Positions 36,301 through 51,831 of a DNA stretch of 52,301 bases are shown piece after piece (position 1 is the stretch's first letter; each line of letters opens with the position of its first letter). The position numbers and the translations under genes were made by a program. The DNA is from Patescibacteria group bacterium (GTDB taxonomy: Bacteria > Patescibacteriota > Patescibacteriia > UM-FILTER-42-10): assembly GCA_041666485.1 (NCBI GenBank), contig JBAYGW010000006.1, positions 1-52,301 on the forward strand, given 5' to 3'. The notes under the pieces were generated by a model. That model was not told where the DNA came from. It was given only the letters and a program-made list of their open reading frames with translations, and searched no databases.

Positions 36301-38512
36301 TACTCATACACTTGACGTAAACACTAGCGATATAGTTTCAATCAATACCGGAATAAACGTTACCTGGACCGGTTCATCTTTTATTCTCGGTGGAACAATT
36401 AACGGATTAGGAACATTAGTAATTGATTCCACTACCATCATCCCAACTACCGGGACTCTATCTTGTATTGTAAGATTTGACGCAACCAATGGTAACACTA
36501 GTGTAATCCCGGAAAGAACATATTATACAATAGAACCATATAACAGTTCAGATGTGTCAGCCAGAACTATTGTACTTGGCACCGCCTCATCACAGGTTAT
36601 TACACTTTCCGGCTATATGTATGTGGTTGCTGACGGAACGCAGAATATTACTCTCAGTGGTACTAGTTATAATCCAACAATCATTGTTGCAAAAGCATTT
36701 GACTTTACTGGCACAGGTGATGGATCAGAGGTTGTATTATCCGGTACAAGCAGTTGGTCTGTTTCAGGCAATGTGGATTTTACCGGGGGCACTTATACAG
36801 CTTCAACCGGAAATACATTAAGAATGAATGGGCTTTTAAAAACCATCACTACGACTGGCAACACCTTGCAGAATTTTGAAGTATACGGAAATGATACTAC
36901 TTCAGTCGGAGCGCTAGACGTTAATGGCACATTCACTGTATCCAGTGGAGCATTTGTACAGGCCGCTGATGCTGATTTGAATGTTGCCGAGGACTTCACA
37001 TTGGCATTAGGCACAACATTCACAGCCGCTTCCGGTACGGGAAAGCTATATCTGGACGGTGATTTGACGCTTACTGACAATACCACATCCAAGCAAGACT
37101 TGGGGAATGTATATATCGGCACCTCTCCGGATACCACGGATCTTGCCAGTGATATTGCTACCAAAGGTATTACAATAAATTCCGGTGATGTGTTAAATAC
37201 CCATGGTTATGAAATGACGATCGGCGTTTATGGTCTGAACGTGATCGGAACTTTGGATATGACTGATGATGTAGAAACAGACGAGACCTTTGTAACTACG
37301 GACGGTGATGTAACATTCGGTGCCGCATCTTCCGTAACCGAGGATCAGTCAACAATCACGTTTGATGCGGCTTCCGGTACTGACAATATATTTAATCCGG
37401 GCGTTCAAAATATAAATAACTTGGTAATCAACGGCGCCAGTTTAACAGTTGAAGTGGAAGACCCGATCATTGTAAATAATGATTTAACAATAACCAGCGG
37501 GATCTTGGATGTCGTATCCGGTGAAAACAACCAAATCAGTTTAGGCGGTGACTGGACCAACAACGGTACTTTCACAGCACAAAATGGAACAGTACTATTG
37601 AACGGTTCCTCTACACAAATTCTATCAGGTACCATGACAACCACATCCCAGTTTTATAATCTGACTGTCAGCAACAGTTCTGGCAGTTACTCCGGATGCG
37701 CGACTTCTTTCACGCCGGGAATTGATTTTGCCGCGGCTGCCACAATCGGCGGAACATACACAATAACCACCGGCGATGCCAAAGTAGAATATAATTCCGG
37801 ATCAGCTTATACGGCAAATAATATTAATTGGAACGGTGGAGCATATGGAGACGAAATAATTTTCCGTAATTCAGATCTTGTTTCAGGTACTTGGACATTA
37901 GATGTTTCCGGGACACAAACTGCCGTAAAATATGTTGATGTCGGTCGTTCAGACGCATCAAGTGGTGATACAATTGACGCTCGGCATATTTCTAATGTTG
38001 ACTGCAGTAACACAACCAATTGGGAATTTGATTCCATTACCCTTAGTATCTCTGATACTACTATCGGTTTTGGTGATCTGACCTCTGCTAACGCCCGCTG
38101 GGCAACCGGCGATGTCGCCGGATCCGACAGTAAGGTAGTTGCTCATACAATAACCGCCTATACCGCCGCTGATAACGGATATCTACTGACCTATAACGGT
38201 CCACTATTAACCAGCGGTTCGGATACAATTACTGCCGCCGCAATTACCAATGATGATGACGGCACGGCAGGAACAGAACAATTCGGATTAGGTATCACCA
38301 CAGCCGGTGACTGCACAATTAATAGCGATTATAATGCTAGCAGTCCCGCGGAGTATAAACTTGCAGCAAGCACAACAACAACCCTTTGTTCCGAAACTGT
38401 GCCTACAGCTTCCGAAGTAATCAGTGCCTATTATATCGCCAACATCAGCAGTGAGACCGAAGCGGGTAATTATTCTACGAATATAACTTATATTATGACC
38501 GCTACGTTCTAA
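24314..38512 (+). CDS. Giant (4732 aa) cell-surface repeat protein: N-terminal signal-anchor, non-repetitive ~970-aa head, nested beta-helix-like repeats, C-terminal ~160-aa domain shared with the three ~360-aa paralogues
   Basis: An uninterrupted 14.2-kb ORF in AT-rich DNA. TM LLAFVLIMLFASLTILIFANIAI. A recurring ~75-aa unit G.VDNSSGNYNINIGGGWDNDD.Y..GT.T.TFDA.SGT..ID.DGTG.D.FYDLTFNDGGG. The C-terminus ISDTTIGFGDLTSANARWATGD...EAGNYSTNITYIMTATF aligns with the C-termini of 39435, 40560 and 46195. Confidence 0.85.
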   Translation: MFNRKNKLELVHQIVRGSKRRGVPSLLAFVLIMLFASLTILIFANIAIQNHHSESAGLVYKTTVAGDVIIRTSPSDCTGWLNPDLAKNIDLLGSSSTKEFNTNNSASYTNTPYENLGDVAEFELANAKLVCGGFQLAENIPPEAVDIVGTISLSFATETFDNNEDIVVFSYSMDGGKNWKAVDSFALLEQMNNQTREGYWSYIIPDLNELKKSEDFLVRVQYVSEPNKQPATAYVDGIALDIQYFEEKRDSGNFGEIQVTNKEGINSQTTAVATIEVEKNSTFGLLGVPTKKREVKSVQLIHPDGSVAEPETKIEEKENGTTKQKEYSIQPVNFDKPGVYKATFAIEENGVVEEKTEEFAWGVLSLNSTKSVYNPGETANLSISAYNGNGDFVCDADLSIQVTNPKGKVATLSTAEGSILKSPQCGPNIVTNTADYITSIEDLSVGQYQLNITGVIDGTTYQAAESFSVEKDIPFDITRIGPSRIYPIAEYEMFLEVIPKDDYFGTVTELVPDLIQVSDINENGLLSTTDENNNYINWQVDWKKGKAYTLSYKFESPTLVDYHFKLGPASFVNYNNPDKKADPLAETTSWQETRPWLIESDSMADKEHNSYIDGDTNRVEIINEKQLRYRAENSEIKDRFFPNNNFFQGPDNSWHIVETQLDIISMGDSRVSFNVNGKPLILTPAVVIGGVTQPIDTLSADYRAQLQMRLEVQKIDQGNKWSHIFFRLPEIEAIEFLVEPDDHTITNANPTSLLVDDQLLLNFSDLVASGFTVSVTPSKIRVTNLKDGWNTLDPTDTFYSSTGADGQITYGNSIYTATTNGTTSLIEDNQLIVPSSETRSFLSFDTSSISDTATVSASDVNTYAESFAKSKTLNTTYSIQYYSGQNGIGATLDSSSADWNSCTTSHGTLNWSNSVGWKSQSLTSPASAVNLTGDTDFKLVEDFTVSTGEYKRVVMRQTEYADTTSDPYLDVTYTAGINVSGNAYNENSTAALTECDGSTNMINLRVQSTTYQTSCNDTTGAFTFTGVATPSSSEAMIIWIDGQTPDGSTVNQYSGTGDVTGMTVQENSVTVHNDSGASYVSNSDLNTFDNGDDDDINYTVSTSDLMIEDGHRLLIKTNEYLDAGGIITTSPAATQSAMDGDIYLESGAAISIGAYALSIGGDYTVESSAGIIFTTGQITTFTGTTTGFSIDTPLNFDSLVFNGTGGGWTFDGDATMTNDLTVTAGTIILGAASYVADDVIINGGTLDVSSGNNYSLSVMGSWDIDGGNFEARSGNVTFNSYFGSETIDSDGTGTDSFYDLTFNDVSGHWDLAGILDVNRNLTITGGTVDNSSGNYNINVGGSWDNDDEYICGTGTVTFDATSGTLSIDADGTGADAFYDLTFNDGGGTATWQLTGLLDVNRNLSIAGGTVDNSAGNYNINIGGGYDNDDGYTRGTETITFDATSGTNLIDGDGTGNQDLYNVTFNDGGGTATWQLTTNFDWIYGTTTLTDGVFDLNNYYWYSYGNFNKTGGSLQMNQASDNLVFQGTFTISGAEGADVFTYGTIQVQDDFTISGDNTFVFGGAGSPRVVFTGTKDPTISISGANNVIGSSTYSAYFDIAFTNSTNTLTFLTAVNAGHCRPQEGKFVINGQNLRCDGVFYAYAGSGIDMASGSLIIGRESYAGGSYSPFWYEAGATENISGGTIQVYGSEQATYGTAYFADGSNFTPTGGTFQFMGTATASIYVAEVDAADFNFWDLTIGNGSTKTVEINTGSVSAIDVDGDLTITAGATLDSNGEPFEVAGNWDNNGTYTHDSNAVTFDGSDTDNTIEAGSSAFYDVIFQGLDGAGLWTFQTNDATVTRTIDIDTSDEVVIATARTITWTGSAFTLDGTISGAGKLTIDSSTTIPTTGTLSSIVRFDSTAGNTAVMPTRTYGGNVEIYNNSAVAARIVTPDIGTHTVSGSLIVQAANTQNVTFAGATNDPTMNITGDLDFGTSGGGVQTITTGANKWTVAGNVDLTAGTFTTEAGNTLAMTGTTKQITSASNPLLNFEISAGSVNNVDAMDVNGTFAITAGTFDHQHGGADINIFSNFTITSGGNWLPSDTYKIILDGDLTLTDSNATPEELSLLQIGASPDTTDLASDIATKGVIVPTGDIFNSHGYDMTLGVYGISVTGTLDLTDDVETDETFITTDGDVTFASGSAVTIDQSTFTFDATSGTDNIFNAGIQDLYNLVINGTVIVEVEDAIDVNGNLTITSGTLDVVSGENNVITVAGAWDNDATFEARSGTVTFDATSGTYSIDADGTGTDAFYDLTFNDGGGSAEWDLAGALDVNRNIAITGGTVDNSSGNYNINIGGGWDNDDSYVRGTETTTFDGASGTYSIDTDSPLEDDFYNVVINDSAGSLHLDLTSQPAQIDGNLTITDGILDLNNYDMYVVGNVSKTGGNLEVNQASDLLAITGNFTVSGNDGSAIFSDGTISIDGNTTISNDDTFGCVAGGWPTFRMQGTTNSTISVSGANNDFGTGTEFCAFTLQKTTNYTLQQLTNITGTTFYFENGIWDVNGQTANFSDKVQINTDGVLKMATGTFTVGRNGSDGDNRAPLSFFISSSEDITGGTIEIYGTANATYGSLFIMDGSNFTPTGGTVKFLGTDATNTLYITEVNTADFNFYNLEIGDGTNAKTLNVNTAATIPIDMNGNLTINANGTFDTNSEAVKVAGNWTNNGTFTADSGTVTLDGAATQTISGTLTGSSAFYDLTITNTSGSYTGCDTAFTPGVDFAASATSTNNYTINTGNVKVEYNSGSTYTFNNINWAGTLGNEIVFRNSNLTSGTWLLNVSGIQSAVSYVSVGRSDASSGDQIIASDGTNTDCSNNIDWLFSSFSVSGSIYNENTTIALTECDSSTNMVNLRVQGTTYQTSCDDTTGAYSFSGITGPTTNESMIIWIEGQTPDGAAVNKYSGSGNVTGIIVEANALTINNDSAVAVSNTDLDTYDSREDNDINYTVDSGSLIVEDGHRIVIKTNENFTPGASVTTSPASTQSAMDGDIYLATGATLNMATNALSVGGDFTTAGTVTITMDSGQATTFTGTTTGFGIEAEDAFDSVTFNGSGGGWTFDAGATLNHHLTVTAGTITLGGTTSVGGNLTINGGTLDVSSGNNYALSVAGSWDIDAGVFQAQSGNVTFNAGSGTLSIDPDGTSTDSFYNLTFNDGGGSAEWDLTGILDVNHNLAITGGTVDNSGGNYAVTLGGGWDNDDTYTCGTETVTFDAASGTLPIDADGTGTDSFYNTIFNDGGGSATWQLTTLMDVNNDFTITGGTFDYNGSNTLTVAGDFTNNDTVTESTGTLKMDGTSGTQYINNTEATSAEASNLYNLEIDDSAGSAIVKSYYPLDTNNNFTITGGTLDMEEAQTYFLTSSTTDAVANNMRIKTTDPAGTANSTSSCNDNETNQSNLVCILNPGSANITWGALPSTIQQKGYMLSDNQGITGTYATGDWTVKATATEVTGQFSYPTYRLEARLWKASTALGSATAITDWGYADVTANITSDVTITFSGVSQTTLTNEVLYVEFAAYFRGDAMDLGSGGPTSMTLTVNEGGTKQQITTPAFSPQINVGGNWDNNDIFYHNKGTVVFDPATGTKTIDSTGASEDDFYNLTINDGAGTGTVQLTGSNLQVDNDFTLTDGTFDLNNLQTLITNSFTKTGGNINMDQSGDHINVDGNFTVSGDGGSSALQDGSIVVAGDVAISNNNVFQMGNNTGYPVFSMDGAVSKTITVSGTGNYFGTTGATGEFDIDKAGGTVVNAGSDLAMWNLVQNTGGLTVAGNYVINADGQYVGLGGVLTMSNGTLSVGSDNLAPSSYANFYVGSGWTEAISAGTIEVDGAGHTTNEAAYFANGSAFTPTGGTFKLIGNDNSTIQIDELDTADFNFYDLTIGDSSNTKTVDIDAASTDIFEVTDNILINPNATFDTNSEPVYIGGNWNNNGTFTADSGIVTFNASDTNNTIDAGTGSFFDIIFEGGDGSGTWYFQNDNATITHTLDVNTSDIVSINTGINVTWTGSSFILGGTINGLGTLVIDSTTIIPTTGTLSCIVRFDATNGNTSVIPERTYYTIEPYNSSDVSARTIVLGTASSQVITLSGYMYVVADGTQNITLSGTSYNPTIIVAKAFDFTGTGDGSEVVLSGTSSWSVSGNVDFTGGTYTASTGNTLRMNGLLKTITTTGNTLQNFEVYGNDTTSVGALDVNGTFTVSSGAFVQAADADLNVAEDFTLALGTTFTAASGTGKLYLDGDLTLTDNTTSKQDLGNVYIGTSPDTTDLASDIATKGITINSGDVLNTHGYEMTIGVYGLNVIGTLDMTDDVETDETFVTTDGDVTFGAASSVTEDQSTITFDAASGTDNIFNPGVQNINNLVINGASLTVEVEDPIIVNNDLTITSGILDVVSGENNQISLGGDWTNNGTFTAQNGTVLLNGSSTQILSGTMTTTSQFYNLTVSNSSGSYSGCATSFTPGIDFAAAATIGGTYTITTGDAKVEYNSGSAYTANNINWNGGAYGDEIIFRNSDLVSGTWTLDVSGTQTAVKYVDVGRSDASSGDTIDARHISNVDCSNTTNWEFDSITLSISDTTIGFGDLTSANARWATGDVAGSDSKVVAHTITAYTAADNGYLLTYNGPLLTSGSDTITAAAITNDDDGTAGTEQFGLGITTAGDCTINSDYNASSPAEYKLAASTTTTLCSETVPTASEVISAYYIANISSETEAGNYSTNITYIMTATF
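27240..38030 (+). repeat. Two diverged super-repeats (~5.2-5.6 kb each) inside the giant gene, each with nested sub-repeats
   Basis: Unit 1 starts ~27240 (NVSGNAYNENSTAALTECDGSTNMINLRVQSTTYQTSC). Unit 2 starts ~32870 (SVSGSIYNENTTIALTECDSSTNMVNLRVQGTTYQTSC). Matching landmarks include SPA.TQSAMDGDIYL (27.7/33.3 kb), DTTDLASDIATKG...DVETDETF.TTDGDVTF (30.65/37.13 kb) and the terminal FTPG.DFAA...VGRSDASSGD blocks (32.5/37.7 kb). Unit 2 carries a unique insert of ~0.85 kb at ~34.2-35.05 kb. Confidence 0.8.
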
Positions 38513-38713: not shown

Positions 38714-39238
38714 ATGTCCAGATTTTTTGTTGATAATTCATATTACTTTATTACAGTTCCAACAAACCAACTATATCCATTTTTTAGTACTCCTAAACAT
38801 AAATTATTTGTACTAGACAGATTGAATAAAGCAAAGGTAGTTTTCAAGTTAAAAAACTTTGACTTTTGTATTATTTCAAATCATTATCACTTTGTTTCAT
38901 ATTTTAGTAACAGTCAAATAATTCCTAAACTTTTGCAATTTATAAACGGAGGAAGTGCACGTAATTTAAACAAATTAACTGGAAATAAAAAATCCATTTG
39001 GGATGAATATTATATGTATTTAATAGAAGATGAAATAATACTGAACAAAATTAGAGGCTACATAGTTGGTAATCCCTTGAAACATAACGAGATTGAAGCA
39101 TTAAAAGATTTAGAAAAATATCCTTTTTCAAGTTATTGCACCTTAATTAGAAAATTAGGCAAAGATAATGTTAATGAGTATATTAGGACAGTCATTTCTT
39201 TAAATGACAATGATATTGTAAATTTGGTAAAGAAATAG
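38714..39238 (+). CDS. Y1 (HUH) tyrosine transposase, IS200-like / REP-associated tyrosine transposase (RAYT)-like
   Basis: The N-terminal YYFITVPT pattern, the HUH motif in ISNHYHFVSYF, and the C-terminal catalytic-Tyr context IRGYIVGNPLKH (Y..NP.k). 174 aa. Confidence 0.75.
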   Translation: MSRFFVDNSYYFITVPTNQLYPFFSTPKHKLFVLDRLNKAKVVFKLKNFDFCIISNHYHFVSYFSNSQIIPKLLQFINGGSARNLNKLTGNKKSIWDEYYMYLIEDEIILNKIRGYIVGNPLKHNEIEALKDLEKYPFSSYCTLIRKLGKDNVNEYIRTVISLNDNDIVNLVKK

Positions 39239-39382: not shown

Positions 39383-39411
39383 TTGACTTTTTGTGCTTGG
39401 TCTGATATAAT
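39383..39411 (+). promoter_or_regulatory. Consensus-like sigma70 promoter for subunit paralogue 1
   Basis: TTGACT (39383-39388), a 17-nt spacer, then TATAAT (39406-39411). A second upstream candidate is TTGCAT-N17-TAAGAT. The whole region is conserved upstream of 46195. Confidence 0.7.
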
Positions 39412-39434: not shown

Positions 39435-40538
39435 TTGAATATTAACCCTTTGAACAACATGTTTAAAAAAATAGGTGTTTACCTGCTAATATTTGCTTTA
39501 GTTTTTTTATACTACCCGATTAAACCGGCGAATGCTGCTAATTTAACTAAAATTACTGATACGCTTTCTACCTTAACCTCAAACGCGGTCGCCAACCATA
39601 CTATTACATTTGTAACACCTACAGGGGTTGAAGCAAACGCTGATACGATTACAATTGATTTAACCGATTTCACCATCGGTTCTGTTGATTATACAGATAT
39701 TGATCTCGCGGTAGATGGTGATGCCAACTGTAACGGCGCCTGGACGGATAAAACACTCGCAGCGGCAAACAACACTGGAGTATGGGGAGCAACTATCACT
39801 TCATCAGTACTCACGCTTGACGCACCAACTGATGCTGCAGCCGGCGAAATTACTGCCGGAGTTTGTGTGCAGGTAGAAATTGGCCTTAATGCCACATCCG
39901 GTGTTGCAGGAAATGCACAATTAACAAACCCAAACGATGCAAACACGCATGTTTTTGAAATCGCAGGAGTATTTGGTGATACCGGGCAATTCGCATTAGA
40001 TTTTGTCGCGGATGACAGCGTCAATGTAACTGCCACTGTTGATCCTTCCATTACATTCGCAATTTCAGATACTGCTATCGGATTTGGTGATCTTGTTTCT
40101 GCCAATGCCCGCTTTGCCACATCAGATGCTACCGGATCCGATACGGATTCTACCGCCGCTCACACCTTATCAATAGGAACGAATGCAACTGACGGATATA
40201 TTATCACCTACAATGGAGCAACACTTACAAGTGGTGGTGACACTATTTCAGTAGCGGCAATATCTAATGATGAAAACGGAACGCCGGGCAGTGAACAGTT
40301 TGCCATGGGATTTTCAACAAACGGTAACACAACAATTCCGGCAGGATATGATCACAATGCAACAGCGGGTAGTCGCGACTGGACTTTTGTCGCCAGTACT
40401 CTAACTACCATCGCTTCAGAAACAGCACCGACCGCTACCGAGACAATTAGCGCATTTTATCTGGCGAATATCGCGGCTGATACCGAAGCGGGAAGTTATT
40501 CCACCGATATCACCTACATCGCAACAGCAACCTTTTAA
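39435..40538 (+). CDS. Secreted two-domain surface/fibre subunit candidate, paralogue 1 (367 aa)
   Basis: Signal peptide ...YPIKPANA|ANLTK. The mature N-terminus ANLTKITDTLSTLTSNAVANHTITFVTPTG is conserved. The C-terminal domain (from ~40041) is shared with the giant protein and ends ...EAGSYSTDITYIATATF. Start is TTG 39435 (AAGGTG 8 nt upstream), alternatively ATG 39459. Confidence 0.8.
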   Translation: MNINPLNNMFKKIGVYLLIFALVFLYYPIKPANAANLTKITDTLSTLTSNAVANHTITFVTPTGVEANADTITIDLTDFTIGSVDYTDIDLAVDGDANCNGAWTDKTLAAANNTGVWGATITSSVLTLDAPTDAAAGEITAGVCVQVEIGLNATSGVAGNAQLTNPNDANTHVFEIAGVFGDTGQFALDFVADDSVNVTATVDPSITFAISDTAIGFGDLVSANARFATSDATGSDTDSTAAHTLSIGTNATDGYIITYNGATLTSGGDTISVAAISNDENGTPGSEQFAMGFSTNGNTTIPAGYDHNATAGSRDWTFVASTLTTIASETAPTATETISAFYLANIAADTEAGSYSTDITYIATATF

Positions 40539-40559: not shown

Positions 40560-41642
40560 ATGAAGTCAAATATTGTGAAAAAAACTAGTATTTCACTGCT
40601 TATTTTTGCTTTGACTTTTATGTATTTCCCGGCCAGACCGGCTTATGCTGCAAATCTGACCAAAGTTACAGATACACTCTCCACATTAACTCAGAATGTG
40701 GTTGCAAATCACACTATCACCTTTGTCACACCAACAGGTGTGCAGGCGACTACAGACACAATTACGATTGATTTTACAGATTTTACCGTTGGTACGGTTG
40801 AATTCGGCGATATTGATATTGCAGAAGATAACGACGGTAACTGCGATGGCGCATGGACAGATAAAACAGTTGCGGCCACAGCCGGCGTAGGTGCGTGGGG
40901 CGCAGCGTTTACAGGCTCAACATTAACACTTACTCCACCAACCAATGCGGCATCCGGAGAAATTGATGCGGGATTCTGCGTACAAGTAGAAATCGGTTTG
41001 AATGCAGCTGGTGGTAACGCCCAATTGACAAACCCAAATGATACAAATAATCATGTCGTAGAAATCGCTGGAGTTTTCGGTGATGCCGGACAGTTTGCAC
41101 TGGATTTTGTCGCGGATGACAGCGTCAATGTAACTGCCACTGTTGATCCTTCCATTACATTCGCAATTTCAGATACCGCAATCGGTTTTGGCGACCTGAC
41201 ATCCGCTAATGCGCGATATGCAACCGGTGACGCTGCCGGCGCTGATGCAGATTCTGCTGCAGCTCACACAATATCAGTTGGCACCAATGCAACTGACGGA
41301 TATATTGTTACCTATAGCGGTGCTACTTTAACCAGCAGTGGAGATACAATCACAGTAGCCGCGATAACCGATGACGCAAACGGAACTCCGGGCACCGAAC
41401 AGTTTGCCATGGGATTTTCAACCGATGGTAATACCACAATCCCGGCCGGATATGACCACAATGCAACTGCGGGTAGTCGTGATTGGACATTTGTTGCCAG
41501 TACACTTACAACCATTGCTTCAGAAACTATCCCGACCGCAACTGAAACTATCAGTGCATTTTATCTGGCGAATATCGCGGCTGATACCGAAGCGGGAAGT
41601 TATTCAACCGATATTACATATATCGCAACTGCAACCTTTTAG
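40560..41642 (+). CDS. Secreted two-domain surface/fibre subunit candidate, paralogue 2 (360 aa)
   Basis: Signal peptide ...ARPAYA|ANLTK. Collinear with paralogue 1, including perfectly identical 73-nt and 50-nt tracts. Confidence 0.85.
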   Translation: MKSNIVKKTSISLLIFALTFMYFPARPAYAANLTKVTDTLSTLTQNVVANHTITFVTPTGVQATTDTITIDFTDFTVGTVEFGDIDIAEDNDGNCDGAWTDKTVAATAGVGAWGAAFTGSTLTLTPPTNAASGEIDAGFCVQVEIGLNAAGGNAQLTNPNDTNNHVVEIAGVFGDAGQFALDFVADDSVNVTATVDPSITFAISDTAIGFGDLTSANARYATGDAAGADADSAAAHTISVGTNATDGYIVTYSGATLTSSGDTITVAAITDDANGTPGTEQFAMGFSTDGNTTIPAGYDHNATAGSRDWTFVASTLTTIASETIPTATETISAFYLANIAADTEAGSYSTDITYIATATF

Positions 41643-41718
41643 TAATTCCAATAATTTGGTATACTGATATCAATAGTTGAAAGGTTATTAATACCATATT
41701 TATAAAAACAAAAGGGTG

Positions 41719-42711
41719 ATGTCAAAAAACATTACAAAGCTGATATTTGGTGCGCTACTGATTGTAGGGGGCTTTTTTGTTATACCAAAAGCGCAAGCAC
41801 TTACTCTTATCCCCCCCTCATTTGAAACATCAGTTGATCCGGGCGTGACTACGGAAACCACCGTTAAGCTGTACAATGAAACTCAGGAAACACTCAACCT
41901 TTATCCGGAAGTCGTCAGCTTTACGGCTGAAGGAGAAACCGGCAACCCGACATTTGACTTCAATGCCCCAGCTGAAGGAGTCGCTTCATGGTTTACTTTG
42001 CCCGAGGGACCGATTACACTCACCGCCGGCGAAAGAAAAGTAATTGATGTCAAAATTACCCCTCCCGTTGATGCCGAGCCAGGTGGTCACTATGCAACTG
42101 TTTTTTTCGGAACGTCATCACCCAATCTGGAAGACCCGGGCAGTCTAGCGCTATCCACAAAACTCGGTTCTCTGTTTTTACTCAGAGTGTTTGGCGATAT
42201 TAAAGAGTCGGGCAGTATCAGTGAATTTGGCTTAAACGGAAATAATACTCTTTCCAGACTGCCGGCAACTTTCTTTACCCGCTTTCAAAATGATGGCAAC
42301 ATTCATCTAAGACCTACCGGCACTATTAAAATTACCAATATGCTAGGCGGTGATACTGCTGCTTTGGAGTTCAACCCCAAGAAAAGTTGCACCCTCCCCG
42401 ACACCATCAGAAAATATGAAACGATTTGGGAAAAAGATCAGATCAGAGAAGTTACCGGCAATTTTTGGAATAAATTTTGGACAGAGTTTTCCAATGAAAA
42501 AAATAATTTTGCCATCGGCAGGTATAAGGCGACAATTTCATTGGACGCGGGTAATCTAGTTCAAGATACTGCAACTATTACTTTCTGGATTATGCCCTGG
42601 AGAGTAATATCAGTCGCTTTGATTATACTCGCTTTCGTAATTGTCTTACTGATATTTTTGATTAAGAAATACAATCAGTGGATCATCAACAAAGCGCGGA
42701 AAAGGAAATAA
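41719..42711 (+). CDS. Signal peptide + Ig-like/beta-sandwich ectodomain + C-terminal TM anchor protein, paralogue A (DUF916/DUF3324-like architecture)
   Basis: Signal FGALLIVGGFFVIPKAQA. LTLIPPSFETSVDPGVTTETTVKLYNETQETLNLYPEV is the pattern of a chaperone/Ig-like first strand. GGHYATVFFGT is present. The C-terminal TM VISVALIILAFVIVLLIFLI is followed by KKYNQWIINKARKRK. I prefer ATG 41719 over GTG 41716. Confidence 0.75.
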   Translation: MSKNITKLIFGALLIVGGFFVIPKAQALTLIPPSFETSVDPGVTTETTVKLYNETQETLNLYPEVVSFTAEGETGNPTFDFNAPAEGVASWFTLPEGPITLTAGERKVIDVKITPPVDAEPGGHYATVFFGTSSPNLEDPGSLALSTKLGSLFLLRVFGDIKESGSISEFGLNGNNTLSRLPATFFTRFQNDGNIHLRPTGTIKITNMLGGDTAALEFNPKKSCTLPDTIRKYETIWEKDQIREVTGNFWNKFWTEFSNEKNNFAIGRYKATISLDAGNLVQDTATITFWIMPWRVISVALIILAFVIVLLIFLIKKYNQWIINKARKRK

Positions 42712-42719
42712 TAAGAATC

Positions 42720-43601
42720 ATGCGCAATATTAAAAACGCTTCAATCATTATTGGCGTTTTTTTTGTTATGCTTTTTTTATTTATCCCTGAAATTGGCAAA
42801 GCAGACACTGTATCAGGATCACTGAATGTATCTGTTTCAGCGATAGTGCAGGCACCGCCACCACCGGAAGAGCCTGATACGATAGTGCGATTTACTGGTT
42901 TAGCCTATCCGGGATCGGAACTTACCTTTGAACGTAATGGGACTCTTATGGCTACTGTCCCCGCTGATCCGGCCGCAAAATTTGATGTTGCGATTGAAAT
43001 GGATCCAGGAACTTATACTTTTTCTATATATGGCAGTGATGCGGACGGACGTGAGGGGCCGGTTTTTAATATCTCAGTGACGCTATCCTCGGGAGTCACA
43101 ATAACAATAACCGGAATATTTTTAGGACCGACTATTGAAGCGGATACATCGTCAGTTCAGATAGGAGATACAATCACTTTCTTAGGGGTTACAATCCCTG
43201 ACAGTAAGGTGAATCTGTTTGTCAGCCCGGAGACAGTAACCAGTTATGATGTAAATTCCGATAGTAATGGACTATGGTCAAAATCACTGATTGCCGGTGA
43301 AGATCTATTAACCGAAGGAAATCACGAAGTACGTTCTAAATCTACATCCGATCAGGGCGATATTTCAGAATATAGTAAAACTGTTGCATTTACTGTTACC
43401 GAGGAAACTAAACCGGACCCATGTGAACTTGCCTCCCGAGCGGATTTAAACTGCGATGGACGTGTAAGTTTAGTTGATTTTAGTATCTTAATGTTCTATT
43501 GGCAGGAAAATAACCCGGCAAATGCAAGGGCAGATATAAATAAAGACGGTGCGGTAAATATTGTAGATTTTAGCATTATGATGTTTTATTGGACCGGCTA
43601 A
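42720..43601 (+). CDS. Secreted protein with Ig-like domains and a C-terminal dockerin (type I-like duplicated Ca-binding repeat)
   Basis: Signal IIIGVFFVMLFLFIPEIGKA. Dockerin repeats DLNCDGRVSLVDFSILMFYW and DINKDGAVNIVDFSIMMFYW. Start is moved to ATG 42720, because the track's GTG 42678 overlaps the previous gene. Confidence 0.8.
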   Translation: MRNIKNASIIIGVFFVMLFLFIPEIGKADTVSGSLNVSVSAIVQAPPPPEEPDTIVRFTGLAYPGSELTFERNGTLMATVPADPAAKFDVAIEMDPGTYTFSIYGSDADGREGPVFNISVTLSSGVTITITGIFLGPTIEADTSSVQIGDTITFLGVTIPDSKVNLFVSPETVTSYDVNSDSNGLWSKSLIAGEDLLTEGNHEVRSKSTSDQGDISEYSKTVAFTVTEETKPDPCELASRADLNCDGRVSLVDFSILMFYWQENNPANARADINKDGAVNIVDFSIMMFYWTG

Positions 43602-43602
43602 T

Positions 43603-44754
43603 ATGAAACTATCTAACAAACAACTTATTTTCTCCCTGACCGTTGTTATCGGTACAGTTTTATTTGGTAAGGCCGCGAGTGCGGCAAATATCTACGTGAA
43701 CCCGCCGGAGCAGACGGTTTTTGCAGATGAAACATTTTTGGCGGAAGTTTATTTGGACAGCGAAAAAGAAATTATCAACGCCGTTCAAACACAGATTTCT
43801 TATCCAACAAATTATCTGGAAGTCGTGGACCTGGCTTACGGCAATTCTTTTTTAACAATCTGGCCCGAACAGCCAAAAAACAACCCTCAAACAGGAGTAA
43901 TCAGCTTTGCCGGTGGCGTACCAGGAGGAAGTTATGTTTTTGATGCCAAGGTGCTGACAATCACTTTCAAAGCCAAACATACCGGTTCAGCTTTTATAAA
44001 CTTACAGAACGACAAAACCGGCGTTTATCTTAATGACAGCGCAGGAACCCCTGCAAAGATTAATACCACTGGAAGCAAGGTAACAATTCTAACTCCCTCC
44101 TCCCAATCTATCGCACTTTCATCCCCTACTCACCCAGATCAGGATAGTTGGTATTCGGCTGATGATTTCATTGTTACCTGGGAACCAAGAATTGATTCTT
44201 TCTATAGTTACATACTTTCTGCCGACCCCGAAGCTGAACCGGATCAAATTCAGGAGGAGGAAGTGGGTAATGTAACATTTCATGATCTTAAAGACGGCAT
44301 CTACTATTTTATTCTATATGAAAAACCGTCCGGAGAAAATTGGGAATATGCGGGAAAAAGAAGAGTAATGATTGACCAGACGTCCCCTCTGCCATTTGAA
44401 ATCCAACTTGCCGATAATACAAAGGAATATAAAGAAAAAAAAGCAATCATTTTTTCAACTACTGATGCCATGTCGGGGATAGACCACTATGACATTCTCC
44501 AGGGTGAAAAATTATTCACCAATGTATCCAGCCCGTATTTATATCAAATTTATGAACCAACCAATTTCATAGTTCGGGCCTATGACAAAGCAGGCAACCT
44601 GACCGAAGCCGGGAAACTGATTATGGCGGAAAAAGAGAATAATTTCTCAAATTTTGCTATAATACTAATAGTAATAATCATCCTGTTGATTATTATCCTA
44701 TTTATCGTTTTACGGTTCCGATCTAAAGATGAAGATAAGCCTCAGTTGGAATAG
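43603..44754 (+). CDS. Membrane-anchored cohesin-domain protein 1
   Basis: Signal peptide. The cohesin-like domain reads IYVNPPEQTV...AEVYLDSEKEIINAVQTQISYPTNYLEVV...ISFAGGVPGG...LTITFKAKHTGSAFINL. A middle domain (HPDQDSWY...IDQTSPLPFEI...SGIDHYDI...YDKAGN) is shared with the next gene. C-terminal TM FAIILIVIIILLIIILFIVL. Confidence 0.75.
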   Translation: MKLSNKQLIFSLTVVIGTVLFGKAASAANIYVNPPEQTVFADETFLAEVYLDSEKEIINAVQTQISYPTNYLEVVDLAYGNSFLTIWPEQPKNNPQTGVISFAGGVPGGSYVFDAKVLTITFKAKHTGSAFINLQNDKTGVYLNDSAGTPAKINTTGSKVTILTPSSQSIALSSPTHPDQDSWYSADDFIVTWEPRIDSFYSYILSADPEAEPDQIQEEEVGNVTFHDLKDGIYYFILYEKPSGENWEYAGKRRVMIDQTSPLPFEIQLADNTKEYKEKKAIIFSTTDAMSGIDHYDILQGEKLFTNVSSPYLYQIYEPTNFIVRAYDKAGNLTEAGKLIMAEKENNFSNFAIILIVIIILLIIILFIVLRFRSKDEDKPQLE

Positions 44755-46081
44755 CAGGATCATATTAACCTCTTTGCTTGTCATGGGGGGATTTATTGTC
44801 GGAACTAACGTGGCACATGCTGGTGCCACACTTTTTCTTTCTCCATCCGGTGGATCGCTGACGGTTGGCGGATCAATCTCCACAACTGTTGTTGTTAATA
44901 CCGGTGGAGACCCTATTAACGCAGTACAAGCAACAGCTTCGTTTCCTACCGATCTTCTGGAAGCGACTGCAGTAACCCAATCAGGGTTATTTGATTTTTG
45001 GCCGGTCACGCCCATCTATTCCAATGGTTCTGGGACAGTAAATTTTGCGGGCGGACTTAGAGACCCCGGTTATACTGGAACTTCTGGATCAATCGTCACT
45101 ATCACCTTTAAGGGTAAAAAAGCGGGAACTGCCACTATTACTCTAGGTTCCGTAATGATATTAAAGAATGACGGTGATGGAACCGATCTGTTCACCGGTG
45201 CTGGCAGCGCAACCTTTACCATATCAGAACCAACTCCCATTACCCCGATTAAACCAACGCCGGTCCCGGATACGGAAGAACCTGAGGAACCAGAGCCGGA
45301 TATAGAAGCCTTGCCGGCGCCAGTTATTTATTCTGACACTCATCCGAAACAAGACAGTTGGTATACTGACAATTCACCGGCATTTTACTGGGATAAACTA
45401 GAAGGGGCGGAAGGATTCAGTTATTCCTTTGATGATAAAAAGAATACAATCCCGGATGACACGACAGAAGGTACGGATAACAAAGCTAACTTCAAAAAAA
45501 CCAAAGACGGTGTTTGGTATCTGCATGTAAAAGTTCTAAACAAAGGTGGTTGGAGCAAAACGTACCATTACCGGGTTCAGATTGATACTACGCCTCCGTT
45601 AGAATTTGATATTAGAATGGAAGGTGAAAATCCGACCAAGCTGCAGGAACCGAAAATGCATTTTGCAACGGTTGATGAACTTTCAGGTGTTGACCGTTAT
45701 GAACTATCCTTAGATAAAGAACCCTATGCTGTTCTTGAAACCGGCGAAACCGAACCTTTTACATTTTCCAAGCTCCCATATGGTGAACACACGACAGAAG
45801 TACAAGTATACGACAAGGCAGGCAACATACAATCTTCTTCATTAGATTTTAATGTTATCAAGTATTCTACGGAAAGCGGGTTTTGGTTGTGGTCACATTT
45901 TATCCTTTTTTCCTGGCTTGCACTGATACTGCTAATCATAATCCTCGCACTGGTGATCCTACTTTGCTTATTTCTGTTTGTTTGTTGTCGGAGGAAGGAA
46001 GATGATGAGGATGAGGAGCAGAAAAAGCAATCCCGTTGGAAAAAAGCAATATTAAATAAAATTAGAAAAGAGAAAAATTAG
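44729..46081 (+). CDS. Membrane-anchored cohesin-domain protein 2 (with Pro/Glu-rich linker)
   Basis: Signal peptide. Cohesin-like LFLSPSGGSLTVGGSISTTVVVNTGGDPINAVQATASFPTDLL...VNFAGGL...VTITFKGKKAGTATITL. Linker EPTPITPIKPTPVPDTEEPEEPEPD. Shared middle domain (HPKQDSWY, IDTTPPLEFDI, SGVDRYEL, YDKAGN). C-terminal TM plus a charged tail. The start overlaps the previous gene by 26 nt. Confidence 0.75.
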   Translation: MKISLSWNSRIILTSLLVMGGFIVGTNVAHAGATLFLSPSGGSLTVGGSISTTVVVNTGGDPINAVQATASFPTDLLEATAVTQSGLFDFWPVTPIYSNGSGTVNFAGGLRDPGYTGTSGSIVTITFKGKKAGTATITLGSVMILKNDGDGTDLFTGAGSATFTISEPTPITPIKPTPVPDTEEPEEPEPDIEALPAPVIYSDTHPKQDSWYTDNSPAFYWDKLEGAEGFSYSFDDKKNTIPDDTTEGTDNKANFKKTKDGVWYLHVKVLNKGGWSKTYHYRVQIDTTPPLEFDIRMEGENPTKLQEPKMHFATVDELSGVDRYELSLDKEPYAVLETGETEPFTFSKLPYGEHTTEVQVYDKAGNIQSSSLDFNVIKYSTESGFWLWSHFILFSWLALILLIIILALVILLCLFLFVCCRRKEDDEDEEQKKQSRWKKAILNKIRKEKN

Positions 46082-46144: not shown

Positions 46145-46173
46145 TTGACTCTTTTATAATAGTATGATATAAT
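46145..46173 (+). promoter_or_regulatory. Consensus-like sigma70 promoter for subunit paralogue 3
   Basis: TTGACT (46145-46150), a 17-nt spacer, then TATAAT (46168-46173). An upstream TTACAT-N17-TAAGAT is also present. The motif block ATGCTAAGATA...TGATATTGACT...GATATAATATA is shared with 39350-39415. Confidence 0.7.
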
Positions 46174-46194: not shown

Positions 46195-47286
46195 ATGACT
46201 AAACACTATTTTAAAGTATTAAATCGCATAGTAAGCATTATAGTAATATTCTTGCTTGTTTTTGTGCTTACTCCGCCTTATCATACTACATACGCGGCTA
46301 GTTTAACCAAAATATCCGATACGCTTTCCACGCTGACCCAGAATGTTGTAGCCGATCACACAATTTTGTTTGTTACGCCAACAGGTGTCCAGGCAGACGC
46401 GGACACTATTACAATTGATTTGACCGATTTCACGGTGGGCACTGTTGATTATACAGACATTGATCTGGCTGTTGATGCTGACGCAAACTGTGATGGCGCC
46501 TGGACGGACAAGACGCTCGCTGCCGCAAACGGAGCCGGCGTATGGGGAGCAACATTCACCGGAGCTGTTCTTACCTTGGATGCTCCGACCGATGCCGCCG
46601 CTGGTGAAATTACCGCGGGAGTTTGTGTACAAGTTCAAATTGGAACAAATGCCTCAGGAGGCAACGCTCAACTGCAAAGTCCCAATGATACCAGTTCACA
46701 CACCATGGAAATCGCCGGAACTTTCGGTGATACCGGTCAATTTGCAATTGACTTTGTTTCCGATGACAGTGTAAATATCACCAGTACTGTTGATCCGTCA
46801 ATTACTTTTGCAATTTCTGATACAACAATCGGTTTTGGCACACTAAGCGCTTCGGCTGCCCGTTGGGCGACTGCCGATACCGCCGGTTCTGCAACAGACA
46901 CGGCCGCGCATACTATTTCAATCGGCACAAATGCAACAGACGGATACATTGTTACTTATAACGGCGCTACTTTGACCAGCAGCGGTGATACAATCACTGT
47001 CGCCTCAATTACAAATGACGCTGACGGGACACAAGGTGCGGAACAATTTGGCATGGGATTCTCAACCAACGGCGATTCTACAATTGCCGCGGCTTATGAT
47101 CATAATGCAACAGCAGGAAATAGGGATTGGGCATTTGTTGCCAGTACTACAACTACGATTGCCTCCGAGCTGGTACCAACTGCATCTGAAACAATCAGCG
47201 CCTTTTATCTTGCCAATATCGCCGCCGATACCGAAGCAGGAAGTTATAACACAGACATCACTTATATTGCTACCGCGACTTTTTAG
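46195..47286 (+). CDS. Secreted two-domain surface/fibre subunit candidate, paralogue 3 (363 aa)
   Basis: Signal ...YHTTYA|ASLTKISDTLSTLTQNVVADHTILFVTPTG. Collinear with paralogues 1 and 2. Ends ...EAGSYNTDITYIATATF. Confidence 0.85.
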   Translation: MTKHYFKVLNRIVSIIVIFLLVFVLTPPYHTTYAASLTKISDTLSTLTQNVVADHTILFVTPTGVQADADTITIDLTDFTVGTVDYTDIDLAVDADANCDGAWTDKTLAAANGAGVWGATFTGAVLTLDAPTDAAAGEITAGVCVQVQIGTNASGGNAQLQSPNDTSSHTMEIAGTFGDTGQFAIDFVSDDSVNITSTVDPSITFAISDTTIGFGTLSASAARWATADTAGSATDTAAHTISIGTNATDGYIVTYNGATLTSSGDTITVASITNDADGTQGAEQFGMGFSTNGDSTIAAAYDHNATAGNRDWAFVASTTTTIASELVPTASETISAFYLANIAADTEAGSYNTDITYIATATF

Positions 47287-47330: not shown

Positions 47331-48344
47331 ATGTCTAAGAAATTTGCAACATCAGCATTGGTTGCCATATTTACATTTTTTGGGGGGTTTTTTATTGCCT
47401 CAACGGCCAATGCATTAACACTAATTGCCCCGACATTTGAGCAAAATGTTGACCCAGGGGTAGCGAGTAAAACAGAAATTAAGCTCTATAACGAAACACA
47501 GGATACACTTTCATTGTATCCGGAAGTTGTTTCATTCACCGCAAATGGTGAGACAGGCCAGCCCACTTTTGATTTTGATGCGCCGCTTGAAGGAGTGGCA
47601 ACTTGGTTTGACTTGCCGGAAGGACCAATTATGTTGCAGGGCGGTGAAAGAAAAATTGTTCCGATCACAATCACTCCTCCGATTGATGCTGAACCGGGTG
47701 GTCACTACGCAACAGTATTTTTTGGTACTTCCGCCCCTAATCTGGAAGATCCGGGCAGCCTGGCACTTGCCACCAAGCTTGGATCATTATTCCTACTGAG
47801 AGTTTTTGGTGATGTTACTGAAGCAGGAAATATCGCGGAATTTGGTCTGGATGGCAACAAAACTACGTTAAACAGATTACCGGCTACAGTATTCACCCGC
47901 TTTCAAAACAGCGGCAATATTCATCTCCGACCGGAAGGAACTATTACGATCAAAAACTTACTGGGTGCTGAAACAGCTAAGCTAGACTTTAATGCAAAAA
48001 AAGGTGCGACCCTGCCGGATAGTATTAGAAAATACGATACAATCTGGGAAAAAGGGCAGGTGAAGCAAGCTTCCGGTAATTTTTGGAACAAATTCTGGAC
48101 AGAGTTTGCCAACGAAAAGAACAATTTTGCTTTAGGCAGATACAAAGCCAGTATCGCATTAACCGCAGGAAATCTGGTCCAGGACAACGCAGAAGTTACA
48201 TTCTGGGTCTGGCCGTGGAGAATTCTGCTTATTTCATTGCTTGTACTCATACTGATTATTCTCCTGCTCGTTATCTTCATCAAACGATACAACAAGTGGA
48301 TTGTGGCAAAGGCAAAAACAACAGCAGAGCCAGAGAAAAAATAA
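47331..48344 (+). CDS. Signal peptide + Ig-like ectodomain + C-terminal TM anchor protein, paralogue B
   Basis: Collinear with 41719..42711, for example GGHYATVFFGTSAPNLEDPGSLALATKLGSLFLLRVFGD. C-terminal TM LLISLLVLILIILLLVIFI followed by KRYNKWIVAKAK. Confidence 0.8.
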   Translation: MSKKFATSALVAIFTFFGGFFIASTANALTLIAPTFEQNVDPGVASKTEIKLYNETQDTLSLYPEVVSFTANGETGQPTFDFDAPLEGVATWFDLPEGPIMLQGGERKIVPITITPPIDAEPGGHYATVFFGTSAPNLEDPGSLALATKLGSLFLLRVFGDVTEAGNIAEFGLDGNKTTLNRLPATVFTRFQNSGNIHLRPEGTITIKNLLGAETAKLDFNAKKGATLPDSIRKYDTIWEKGQVKQASGNFWNKFWTEFANEKNNFALGRYKASIALTAGNLVQDNAEVTFWVWPWRILLISLLVLILIILLLVIFIKRYNKWIVAKAKTTAEPEKK

Positions 48345-50691: not shown

Positions 50692-51393
50692 ATGAAGAAC
50701 CGTTATATTTTATTTTCTGTTGCCACATTTATTGTACTATCTGTTTTATTGCCAGTTACTCCCGTATTAGCAGACTGCGACACGGGGAATTTTCTTCCGC
50801 CTTGCACCTGTAGCGGACAATGTAAATTGACAGACTTCCTAGCATTAGGAGCAAATATCATGAAATACGCAGTCGGCGCAGTGGCCGCTGTTGCAATAGG
50901 TTTTATTATTAACGGTGGATTTACCTTACTGATGGCAATGGGCAATTCGGAAAAGATTGATTCGGGGAAAAAGCAATTGAGCGGAACTTTTAAGGGAGTT
51001 GCCATGGTCATGCTGACATGGATACTGGTAAGTACAATTATATTTTTTGCAACTGGTAAAACTGATGGTCTTGTCTTCGGCAGAGGAAAAAAATGGTGGG
51101 AATTCAAAGAAACTCAACTATATGAAATGTACCTGCCTTACGAACCTGGCAGTTTTTGCCCGGTCCGCACTTTTGCGCCGCCAGCAAATGTAACTTGCAC
51201 GCCGTATAATTTTTATCTGAATCCGCAGACCTGTACCAATACGAGTTCCTATGATGACGCGATGAAAGCAAGTGGTAATTGCCGTAAGCTAGGTGTTTGC
51301 GAGGGAGGGTCAGAAATGCTTTGTTGCGATCAGGGTAAGGCCACCAGTTGTCCGAGCAGTGATGATGTAAAAAAATATATTACCGGTGAATAA
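50692..51393 (+). CDS. TrbC/VirB2-like (T4SS-type) pilin-family protein with a Cys-rich C-terminal extension
   Basis: Signal plus a Cys-rich stretch (ADCDTGNFLPPCTCSGQC). Two TMs bracket a conserved loop: AVAAVAIGFIINGGFTLLMAMGNSEKIDSGKKQL...VAMVMLTWILV. The extra ~110-aa tail has 10 Cys. Confidence 0.6.
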   Translation: MKNRYILFSVATFIVLSVLLPVTPVLADCDTGNFLPPCTCSGQCKLTDFLALGANIMKYAVGAVAAVAIGFIINGGFTLLMAMGNSEKIDSGKKQLSGTFKGVAMVMLTWILVSTIIFFATGKTDGLVFGRGKKWWEFKETQLYEMYLPYEPGSFCPVRTFAPPANVTCTPYNFYLNPQTCTNTSSYDDAMKASGNCRKLGVCEGGSEMLCCDQGKATSCPSSDDVKKYITGE

Positions 51394-51414: not shown

Positions 51415-51831
51415 ATGAAATCAAATCAAATTAAGTACTCTCTAATATTGCTTTTCATCGTAATAACACTGTTTTCCATTGCACCCAGAATTGTTACTGC
51501 AGAATCTGTTTGCTGCGATACCGGCTCCCCATGCACCGAAGGAAATCAGTGTTCAAATGGAGTTTGTGGTGGTCTTTGTAATCCGCTTGGTAGTACAGAA
51601 ATGTCTTTAATTGATCTTTGGGTCAGAATTCTACAATTAATGCTTGGCGGAGTAGGTTTGTTCGGAGTAATGATGTTTATTTATGGCGGATTTATTATGC
51701 TCACCTCGGCCGGTAACCCGGATAAAGTAAAAAAGGCTAAAGATACCTTGGTTTGGGCAGTCCTCGGCCTCGCCACCATATTCGTTAGCGGCACAGTGGT
51801 GCGATATCTTTTTGATAACTTTAAATTTTAG
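51415..51831 (+). CDS. TrbC/VirB2-like (T4SS-type) pilin-family protein
   Basis: Signal and a Cys-rich segment (ESVCCDTGSPCTEGNQCSNGVCGGLC). Then LMLGGVGLFGVMMFIYGGFIMLTSAGNPDKVKKAKDTLVWAVLGLATIFV, which is the classic pilin pattern seen in CPR genomes. Confidence 0.7.
   Translation: MKSNQIKYSLILLFIVITLFSIAPRIVTAESVCCDTGSPCTEGNQCSNGVCGGLCNPLGSTEMSLIDLWVRILQLMLGGVGLFGVMMFIYGGFIMLTSAGNPDKVKKAKDTLVWAVLGLATIFVSGTVVRYLFDNFKF

Follow-up and report, generated by a model that had tools for sequence, protein, structure and literature searches.

The locus described here raises the question of what role is played by two closely similar membrane proteins, designated P1 and P2, that are each encoded behind pilin genes in a bacterium of the candidate phyla radiation (CPR). 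The window, i.e., the whole stretch of DNA analyzed, comprises 52,301 nucleotides of contig JBAYGW010000006.1 (GenBank assembly GCA_041666485.1) from an uncultured Patescibacterium. Its sequence is present in groundwater and landfill metagenomes, and a search for expression evidence found reads with this sequence only in DNA runs from these metagenomes. Our analysis indicates that P1 and P2 are probably membrane-anchored donor-strand-complementation chaperones of an usher-less Pam-type pilus and the counterpart of the proteins PamC and PamD.

Two Pam filaments of Candidatus Mycosynbacter amalyticus, built from PamA and PamB, were solved by cryo-electron microscopy (cryo-EM) (Troman et al., bioRxiv preprint 10.64898/2026.03.03.709456). 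In the Pam pilin, according to the same paper, one linker strand joins a beta-sandwich N-terminal domain (NTD) to a truncated Ig-like C-terminal domain (CTD), and the CTD accepts the linker of the neighboring subunit by donor-strand exchange. The pilin operon also encodes PamC and PamD, which AlphaFold and Foldseek predict to be PapD/FimC-like chaperones that, unusually, keep a C-terminal transmembrane (TM) helix. Its further products are PamE, the CTD-only tip protein PamT, and PamR, a tether that resembles RbmA and carries an additional strand at the N-terminus and a TM helix; PamD, with a mass of 37.4 kDa, was abundant in the proteome (10.64898/2026.03.03.709456). The accessions of PamC and PamD are WP_260763277.1 and WP_260763284.1. 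Table S1 of that paper lists PamC as QHN42421.1, a 119-kDa protein encoded beside type IV pilus genes, which does not fit a chaperone of about 36 kDa; QHN43268.1, a hypothetical protein of 36.5 kDa at the start of the pam accession run, may be the intended PamC.

In a BLASTP comparison of P1 and P2, 216 of 304 positions were identical (71%; 87% positives, one gap, E = 3e-165), and the two proteins are therefore collinear paralogues far beyond chance, as had been claimed in an earlier note on this DNA; the peptides quoted there were all found. Amino acid residues (aa) 123–161 read GGHYATVFFGTS[S/A]PNLEDPGSLAL[S/A]TKLGSLFLLRVFGD in both paralogues. The mature proteins start at AXA signal-peptidase sites (AQA↓LTLIPP and ANA↓LTLIAP), and the cleavage site is directly followed in both by LTLI[P/A]P.FE..VDPGV...T..KLYNETQ.TL.LYPEVVSFTA.GETG.PTFDF. 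Both proteins are closed by a hydrophobic helix and a Lys/Arg-rich tail, which in P1 read WRVISVALIILAFVIVLLIFLI-KKYNQWIINKARKRK, and the TM helix and a YNxWI motif are conserved across the chaperone family. The open reading frame (ORF) list places the start of P1 at a GTG codon at position 41716, one codon before the ATG at 41719 from which the gene had previously been counted.

An AlphaFold2 (AF2) model of P1, built on a 63-sequence family alignment, had a mean predicted local distance difference test (pLDDT) score of 91.9. It contained two beta-sandwiches (aa 29–158 and 166–292), the second with a short helical insert at aa 250–263, and two helices, one in the signal peptide (aa 4–20) and one long terminal helix (aa 295–330). 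The AXA sites, the modeled sandwiches, and the TM helix with its basic tail bear out the previously proposed order of signal peptide, beta-sandwich, and C-terminal anchor. P1 and P2 are most likely type-I membrane proteins with a two-domain Ig-like ectodomain facing outward and the basic tail in the cytoplasm.

When the P1 model was compared with the PDB by Foldseek, the top matches were WxLIP structures of Enterococcus faecium (9i25_C, E = 5.8e-12, and 9i1y, E ~1e-11). The title of 9i25 describes WxLIP "bound to long WxL", i.e., in a physical complex with its neighboring WxL protein. The next group consisted of chaperone-usher chaperones, namely, CfaA (1e-9), CsuC (5.5e-9), YadV, Caf1M (1.4e-7), DraB, and SafB, with E values ranging from 1e-9 to 5e-7 and TM-scores to the target of 0.5–0.58, and many of them were solved in complex with subunits. 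For profile comparison, ten genes annotated as "DUF916 and DUF3324 domain-containing" from plasmids of Enterococcus, Lactococcus, and Lactobacillaceae served as the WxLIP set. Aligned against these by hhalign, the CPR family gave a probability of 98.2% (E = 2.8e-14) in an alignment of 244 columns that takes in both Ig domains; it runs through domain 2 (query 23–295 versus template 18–289), and Foldseek aligned 269–292 columns. The Pfam family PF06030 (WxLIP_PGBD, formerly DUF916) was matched by 39 of 63 family members at E ≤ 0.1 (best E = 7.5e-7), the best PDB sequence for the family profile was EfmWxLIP1 with a marginal E of 0.05, and one relative gave a weak NCBIfam "fimbria/pilus chaperone" match (E = 0.012). 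Both resemblances suggested in the earlier note, to DUF916/WxLIP proteins and to PapD-like chaperones, were thus recovered. We conclude from these profile comparisons that P1 and P2 are distant homologues of Firmicute WxLIP proteins. This link between the Pam system and WxLIP has not been stated previously, and WxL and DUF916 are not mentioned in 10.64898/2026.03.03.709456.

The residues at which P1 and P2 would bind subunits are suggested by conservation. Residues 119–161 form the most conserved block of the chaperone family; P1 and P2 are 95% identical here, compared with about 71% over the remaining ectodomain and 40% over the TM helix and tail. In the P1 model, pLDDT falls to 64–77 in the loop of this block and below 50 at aa 142–144, and in the hhalign comparison the block falls on the F-G region of the first WxLIP domain. 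The G1 donor strand of chaperone-usher chaperones comes after the F1-G1 loop. AF2 predicts that the WxL sandwich is completed by a disordered hairpin of WxLIP domain 1 as it turns into a strand (PMC10599100). Because the conserved block aligns with the WxLIP F-G region and because of the G1 precedent of chaperone-usher chaperones, P1 and P2 are proposed to complement the open CTD of the pilins.

The neighboring genes define the pilus to which P1 and P2 belong. The three pilins and the C-terminal 200 aa of a giant protein (60.9 bits, collinear with the pilin CTDs) exceeded the 55-bit cutoff of NF058581 (CPR_Pam_pilin_C), an NCBIfam model derived from 10.64898/2026.03.03.709456, and the locus is therefore a Pam-type pilus operon; Pfam offered no family for the three pilin genes of about 360 aa. 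The AF2 model of pilin B (pLDDT 92) showed an NTD (aa 34–181), an unstructured linker of lower confidence (aa 183–198), and a CTD (aa 199–358), in agreement with the published Pam pilin layout. The linker consensus over 79 pilins is DDQVSVTATVDP. The linker (DDSVNVTATVDP) and CTD are more conserved than the NTD, as reported in 10.64898/2026.03.03.709456. A sortase-type pilus was rejected, as the pilins end in ...ATATF without LPXTG and no sortase was detected in the locus. A type IV pilus or type IV secretion system (T4SS) pilin was likewise rejected for these genes; the only such match was to TrbC, below cutoff and on a signal peptide.

Pilin and chaperone genes were found together far beyond the window. 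An iterated pilin-CTD profile detected a pilin-CTD gene in 75 of 79 sources; with few exceptions it lies just upstream of the chaperone gene and on its strand, and 83 of 104 chaperone ORFs had one at a distance of 500 bp or less. In the four sources with no pilin, the chaperone lies at the very start of the contig, and a pilin was close upstream in 75 of 75 testable loci. In the window, pilins A and B precede P1 and pilin C precedes P2. The pairing with subunit genes noted earlier, one copy after each subunit set, therefore holds within the window and across the family. PamT-like genes (167–171 bits, full length) adjoin family members in more distant loci (L062 and L067).

It could be supposed that P1 and P2 are generic Ig-fold surface proteins that lie beside pilin genes and do not act on them, since the Foldseek matches were of low specificity (500 at E ≤ 1e-3, including ciliary and transglutaminase domains) and weak Pfam matches to fn3_5 and NPCBM_assoc were obtained. 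This explanation is barely credible in view of the invariant synteny with pilin genes over 75 loci from many CPR lineages, the retention of a duplicated pilin and chaperone block in three genomes, and the specific, significant profile match to WxLIP, which was crystallized bound to its neighbor.

P1 and P2 share with PamC and PamD the CPR host, the location among Pam pilin genes, a signal peptide followed by two PapD/FimC-like beta domains and a TM helix, a mass of about 37 kDa (36.6 kDa for P1 and 37.0 kDa for P2), the presence of more than one paralogue per locus, and the lack of an usher; none of the annotated ORFs in the locus looked usher-like in Pfam or NCBIfam. The suggestion that P1 and P2 bind or anchor subunits at the membrane would agree with the role proposed for PamC and PamD (10.64898/2026.03.03.709456). 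The hosts differ, being Saccharimonadia in one case and groundwater Patescibacteria related to metagenome-assembled genomes labeled Kerfeld- and Uhrbacteria in the other. The operons differ as well: in the present one there is no obvious RbmA-like TM tether, and its products include a giant adhesin with a CTD, a dockerin protein, and two TM proteins of the cohesin-like type. The chaperone-usher chaperones (PapD, FimC, CfaA, CsuC, Caf1M, SafB, and DraB) have the two Ig-like domains in common with P1 and P2, form the second-best structural group, and share the proposed mode of action, donor-strand complementation followed by exchange (10.64898/2026.03.03.709456). However, they are soluble periplasmic proteins that work with an outer-membrane usher, whereas P1 and P2 are TM-anchored.

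Several results weigh against the assignment of P1 and P2 as donor-strand chaperones. The global superpositions in Foldseek were loose (TMq ~0.4, rmsd 7–9 Å), and RbmA, which has a PamR-like fold, was also matched (E = 5e-8, TM-score to the target 0.32). PF06030 was the top match of P1 but a weak one, below the gathering score (E = 0.016; 15.6 bits versus a cutoff of 27.3), and P2 did not match this family. PF11797 (DUF3324/HBD) was matched in Pfam by none of the 63 family members, and PapD_N and PapD_C were matched neither by P1 and P2 (E ≤ 1) nor by the 63 relatives (E ≤ 0.1, top families). NCBIfam gave no match for P1 and P2, and no curated model recognizes them, although its Pam pilin and PamT models match their neighbors. 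The orthology with PamC and PamD is drawn only from architecture and context, and the function of PamC and PamD is itself only an AlphaFold/Foldseek prediction (10.64898/2026.03.03.709456). Mimicry of the pilin donor linker by the chaperone loop was considered and rejected, as P1 and P2 score poorly, and is a weak lead only: the family loop consensus xGQVxIsSKvGT resembles the linker DDQVxVTATVDP, and the best match to the position-specific scoring matrix of the linker falls in the chaperone loop in 26% of chaperones versus about 6% by chance. Finally, the analogy with WxLIP cannot simply be transferred, because the pilin CTD has no significant profile similarity to WxL.

This last point was pursued at the level of the pilins. 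By eye, pilin motifs resemble those of WxL proteins (ITFAISDTAIGFG versus LSID..FG, GYIVTY versus GWxLxV, and ITYIATATF versus TLTWxLxxTP). The identification of the pilin CTD as a WxL domain was nevertheless not supported and was set aside, as hhalign gave a probability of only 14.6% with full pilins and 3% with the CTD only (E = 0.015). The pilin profile had no match among PDB sequences, the full pilin model matched generic two-Ig adhesins only in Foldseek, none of its top 50 matches was a 9i25 WxL chain, and the Pfam WxL family was not matched by the neighbors of P1 and P2.

WxLIP proteins (PF06030, PF11797, and a TM helix; from Enterococcus, Lactobacillaceae, Listeria, and Lactococcus) share with P1 and P2 the architecture, a length of about 330–365 aa, the best structural match, profile-profile homology over both domains, and a partner predicted to be completed by a strand of domain 1. 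The gene logic of WxL loci is also shared, comprising a small WxL protein, WxLIP, and a large protein whose C-terminus is a WxL domain. On the other hand, P1 and P2 do not qualify formally as WxLIP proteins: the sequence identity is about 15%, the phylum is another one, P1 is below the PF06030 cutoff, and PF11797 is unmatched in Pfam by the P1/P2 family. Furthermore, the WxLIP hallmark NQIDKxxxYFDLK is not in the CPR family consensus, and the partners are WxL proteins not known to polymerize in one case and Pam pilins (hhalign 3–15%) in the other. The homology over both domains, the top rank of WxLIP among the structural matches, and the shared locus layout might be taken to mean that P1 and P2 are surface scaffolds of the WxLIP type, in which domain 1 binds the cell wall and the partner and domain 2 binds the host, and which present adhesins with no role in polymerization; peptidoglycan and host binding were indeed proposed in the WxLIP paper. 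We regard this as quite improbable: those functions of WxLIP are in-silico proposals, the hallmark motif is absent from the family consensus, no family member matched PF11797 in Pfam, and P1 and P2 have Pam pilins as partners, relatives of which build the filaments with donor-strand exchange that were solved by cryo-EM. A chaperone function in pilus assembly is preferred here.

The coordinates of P1, P2, and the other features of the locus are collected in Table 1.

Table 1. Features of the pilus locus and its surroundings in the 52,301-nt window.
Feature	Position	Strand	Description
Giant repeat-rich protein	24314..38512	+	4,732 aa, 498 kDa; ends in a Pam pilin C-terminal domain of ~165 aa
IS200-like Y1 transposase	38714..39238		PF01797, 24.8 bits
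Promoter-like site before pilin A	39383..39411	+	TTGACT-17-TATAAT, extended -10 TG; consensus match only
Pilin A	39435..40538	+	Pam-type, 367 aa; NF058581 CPR_Pam_pilin_C, 70.1 bits; signal peptide, beta-sandwich NTD, conserved linker, C-terminal acceptor domain ending ...TYIATATF
Pilin B	40560..41642	+	Pam-type, 360 aa; NF058581, 65.3 bits; linker DDSVNVTATVDP at aa 186-197
P1, chaperone paralogue 1	41716..42711	+	ORF, 331 aa, 36.6 kDa, GTG start; signal peptide aa 1-28, Ig-like domain 1 aa 29-161, Ig-like domain 2 aa 162-294, TM helix aa 295-316, basic tail aa 317-331
Candidate subunit-binding / donor-strand region (P1 aa 119-161)	42070..42198	+	From conservation, pLDDT dip, and WxLIP alignment; F1-like strand DAEPGGHYATVFF, low-confidence loop aa 133-148, G1-like strand KLGSLFLLRVFGD
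dock307	42720..43601 (ORF call from 42678)	+	Secreted, 293 aa; Pfam Dockerin_1 39.6 bits (cutoff 22.9), Big_13; N-terminal donor-strand-like motif SLNVSVSAIV, Pro-rich spacer, two Ig-like domains, C-terminal dockerin
coh383	43603..44754	+	Cohesin-like, 383 aa; signal peptide, C-terminal TM anchor; Pfam Cohesin 23.2 bits (cutoff 24.1, marginal)
coh450	44729..46081	+	Cohesin-like + Big_13, 450 aa; signal peptide, C-terminal TM anchor; Cohesin 24.2 bits (cutoff 24.1), Big_13 38.5 bits
Promoter-like site before pilin C	46145..46173	+	TTGACT-17-TATAAT, extended -10 TG; consensus match only
Pilin C	46195..47286	+	Pam-type, 363 aa, precedes P2; NF058581, 72.3 bits
P2, chaperone paralogue 2	47331..48344	+	ORF, 337 aa, 37.0 kDa; architecture as in P1
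Small membrane protein	50692..51393		PF18895 T4SS_pilin, 28 bits; Cys-rich N-terminal region
Small membrane protein	51415..51831		PF18895 T4SS_pilin, 37 bits; Cys-rich N-terminal region

A dockerin-protein gene such as dock307 lies directly 3′ of the chaperone gene in 50 of the 79 sources, and both cohesin-like genes follow it in 49 of them. In homologues, the mature N-terminus of the dockerin protein repeats the pilin donor motif (SQQVTVTATVPE and AIDVSVSATVPS). The N-terminal motif matches of dockerin proteins exceeded the 99th percentile of 735 control ORFs in 54% of cases, and about 40 of 50 fell at ORF positions 30–66, where the mature N-terminus is expected. The motif region of dock307 itself (SLNVSVSAIVQA; mature N-terminus SLNVSVSAIVQAPPPPEEPDT) scores poorly and was assigned by alignment with orthologues, the motif being stronger in homologues. 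From these motifs and the synteny, we hypothesize that dock307 is a candidate donor-only terminator or tether and a plausible functional analogue of PamR; the gene order suggests that cohesin-dockerin pairing joins the base of the pilus to the membrane. In loci without a dockerin protein, the chaperone gene is followed by an ORF of about 1,100–1,200 aa with no pilin-CTD match (L063:2385–5969, L071:10897–14436, L056:11013–14426, L077:11069–14740, and L066:4124–7462). A linker-like motif occurs at about aa 190–240 of these ORFs, as DDQ[IV]xVTATV in L063, L071, and L056 and in a more degenerate form in L077 and L066, and they may be another form of donor-only base subunit.

These proteins bear on whether P1 and P2 could instead be permanent base anchors or terminators of the PamR type, whose strand would stay in the groove of the last pilin while the TM helix holds the fiber. 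A PamR/RbmA-like tether resembles P1 and P2 in having two Ig/FnIII-like domains and a C-terminal TM helix, which is conserved throughout the chaperone family, and RbmA, whose fold was assigned to the tether PamR, was among the Foldseek matches. Moreover, a membrane-anchored chaperone would necessarily tether the fiber while it grows from the base, so that the two roles would overlap. This alternative is nonetheless unlikely. The match to RbmA was much weaker than that to the chaperones (TM-score to the target 0.32 versus 0.5–0.58 for WxLIP and chaperone-usher chaperones), and the copies number one per pilin set, not one per operon. The conserved N-terminal donor-strand motif is located in the neighboring dockerin protein, not in P1 and P2, and the dockerin protein and the two cohesin-like TM proteins, conserved in 49–50 of the 79 sources, are better tether candidates. 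Because this other conserved product of the operon looks like a dedicated tether, dock307 with the cohesin-like membrane proteins is the likelier permanent anchor, and P1 and P2 are likelier chaperones than base anchors.

The opposite end of the fiber may be occupied by the giant protein. It lacks the donor-linker motif and has VDCSNTTNWEFD in place of the linker; xDxxNNDCW replaces the linker in 12 of the 14 giant CTD-bearing homologues listed. Its N-terminal 600 aa match ORFs of about 2,250–2,900 aa at the same position in eight other loci, several of these ORFs being truncated by the contig edge. Because it is acceptor-only, having an acceptor domain and no donor linker, the giant fits the tip position, and it is likely a tip adhesin incorporated by strand exchange. 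The role of each protein in the operon can be told from its sequence, according to whether it has the acceptor domain alone, both donor and acceptor, or the donor alone.

We infer that P1 and P2 bind subunits and complement their strands in the following order of assembly. The chaperone would be exported by the Sec system, its signal peptide cleaved, and the protein retained by its C-terminal helix with the basic tail inside. A newly exported pilin would have an incomplete Ig-like CTD, and domain 1 of the chaperone (aa 119–161) would supply the missing strand and keep the subunit folded at the membrane. The linker strand of the next pilin (DDSVNVTATVDP) would then displace the chaperone by donor-strand exchange, so that the fiber grows from its base. 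The 4,732-aa giant, with its acceptor domain and no donor linker, would be placed at the tip, and the dockerin protein, which would offer only a donor-strand-like N-terminus, would cap the base and tether the fiber to the cohesin-like membrane proteins.

The presence of two chaperone copies appears to reflect a duplication. The upstream blocks of pilin A and pilin C are homologous, with TATGCTAAGAT common to both, and the promoter-like sites in front of these genes were the two best of 35 sigma-70-like consensus matches (11/12). This arrangement suggests two transcription units that arose by block duplication of promoter, pilin, and chaperone. Since the putative binding region is nearly identical in P1 and P2, the two proteins probably differ not in binding chemistry but in the transcription unit or pilin set that they serve. 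Orthologues in two other genomes (L001 and L002) showed 92% and 83% identity to P1 and 94% and 81% to P2, respectively, and the identities between paralogues (67–71%) were below these values. The dN/dS ratios versus the closest orthologue were 0.036 for P1 and 0.035 for P2. Both genes are real and under purifying selection. Because each paralogue has its own orthologue in two genomes, the duplication is older than those species and both copies have been maintained; the block duplication of pilin and chaperone is kept in all three genomes.

Two further elements lie at the margins of the locus. The transposase gene is situated between the giant gene and pilin A, and a homologue was found at the equivalent place in L002 (close) and L008 (weak). 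The two small PF18895 proteins are encoded downstream of, and separately from, the pilus locus and are probably part of a conjugation-type T4SS of CPR.

The chaperone family is large, with 17,759 clusters at 50% identity (E ≤ 1e-3). A pattern-limited scan of one genome per species, with an alignment of 27 closer sequences as the query, gave 439 matches in species-representative genomes, and 78 of these loci were retrieved. The lineages carrying the family are labeled Kerfeld-, Uhr-, and Parcubacteria and also include Microgenomates. Tandem chaperone genes of different subfamilies were observed at about locus positions 9000–11000 in L006, L007, L009, L010, L012, L016–L021, L023, L025, L028, and L061. 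In these pairs, a short chaperone (about 300–315 aa, 27–41% identical to P1) is followed by a long one (about 331–357 aa, 46–50%); both members have TM helices, which recalls the PamC/PamD pair. The lineage of the window has two copies of the long type in place of the short and long pair.

Pam pili were identified in 2026 in one cultured Saccharimonadia species; what the present locus adds is the statistically solid homology of their chaperones to WxLIP, the very broad spread of the chaperone family, and an operon with a legible donor/acceptor grammar. It is conceivable, although less likely than not, that the Pam pili of CPR and the WxL clusters of Firmicutes both descend from an ancient assembly system of single-membrane bacteria that worked without an usher and around a membrane-anchored chaperone, with the base held through dockerin and cohesin in the present case. 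If this is true, the shared parts would be a TM-tethered chaperone, small subunits, and large adhesins with a C-terminal acceptor domain; WxLIP would act as a donor-strand chaperone, and the WxL proteins, beyond binding peptidoglycan, may assemble by strand exchange. The fiber base would also be held in a way described for no other pilus, by a donor-strand-only subunit whose dockerin enters cohesin-like membrane proteins. Because neither Pfam nor NCBIfam currently detects the chaperones, the present alignments could serve to build a family model. The homology to WxLIP ties the Pam system to a virulence-associated, mechanistically unclear cluster of enterococci, listeriae, and lactobacilli and so gives workers on either system a mechanism to test, the completion of subunits by a donor strand from a membrane-anchored chaperone. 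The CPR/Patescibacteria, which make up much of bacterial diversity, live attached to other cells, and P1 and P2 would take part in building an organelle for such attachment.

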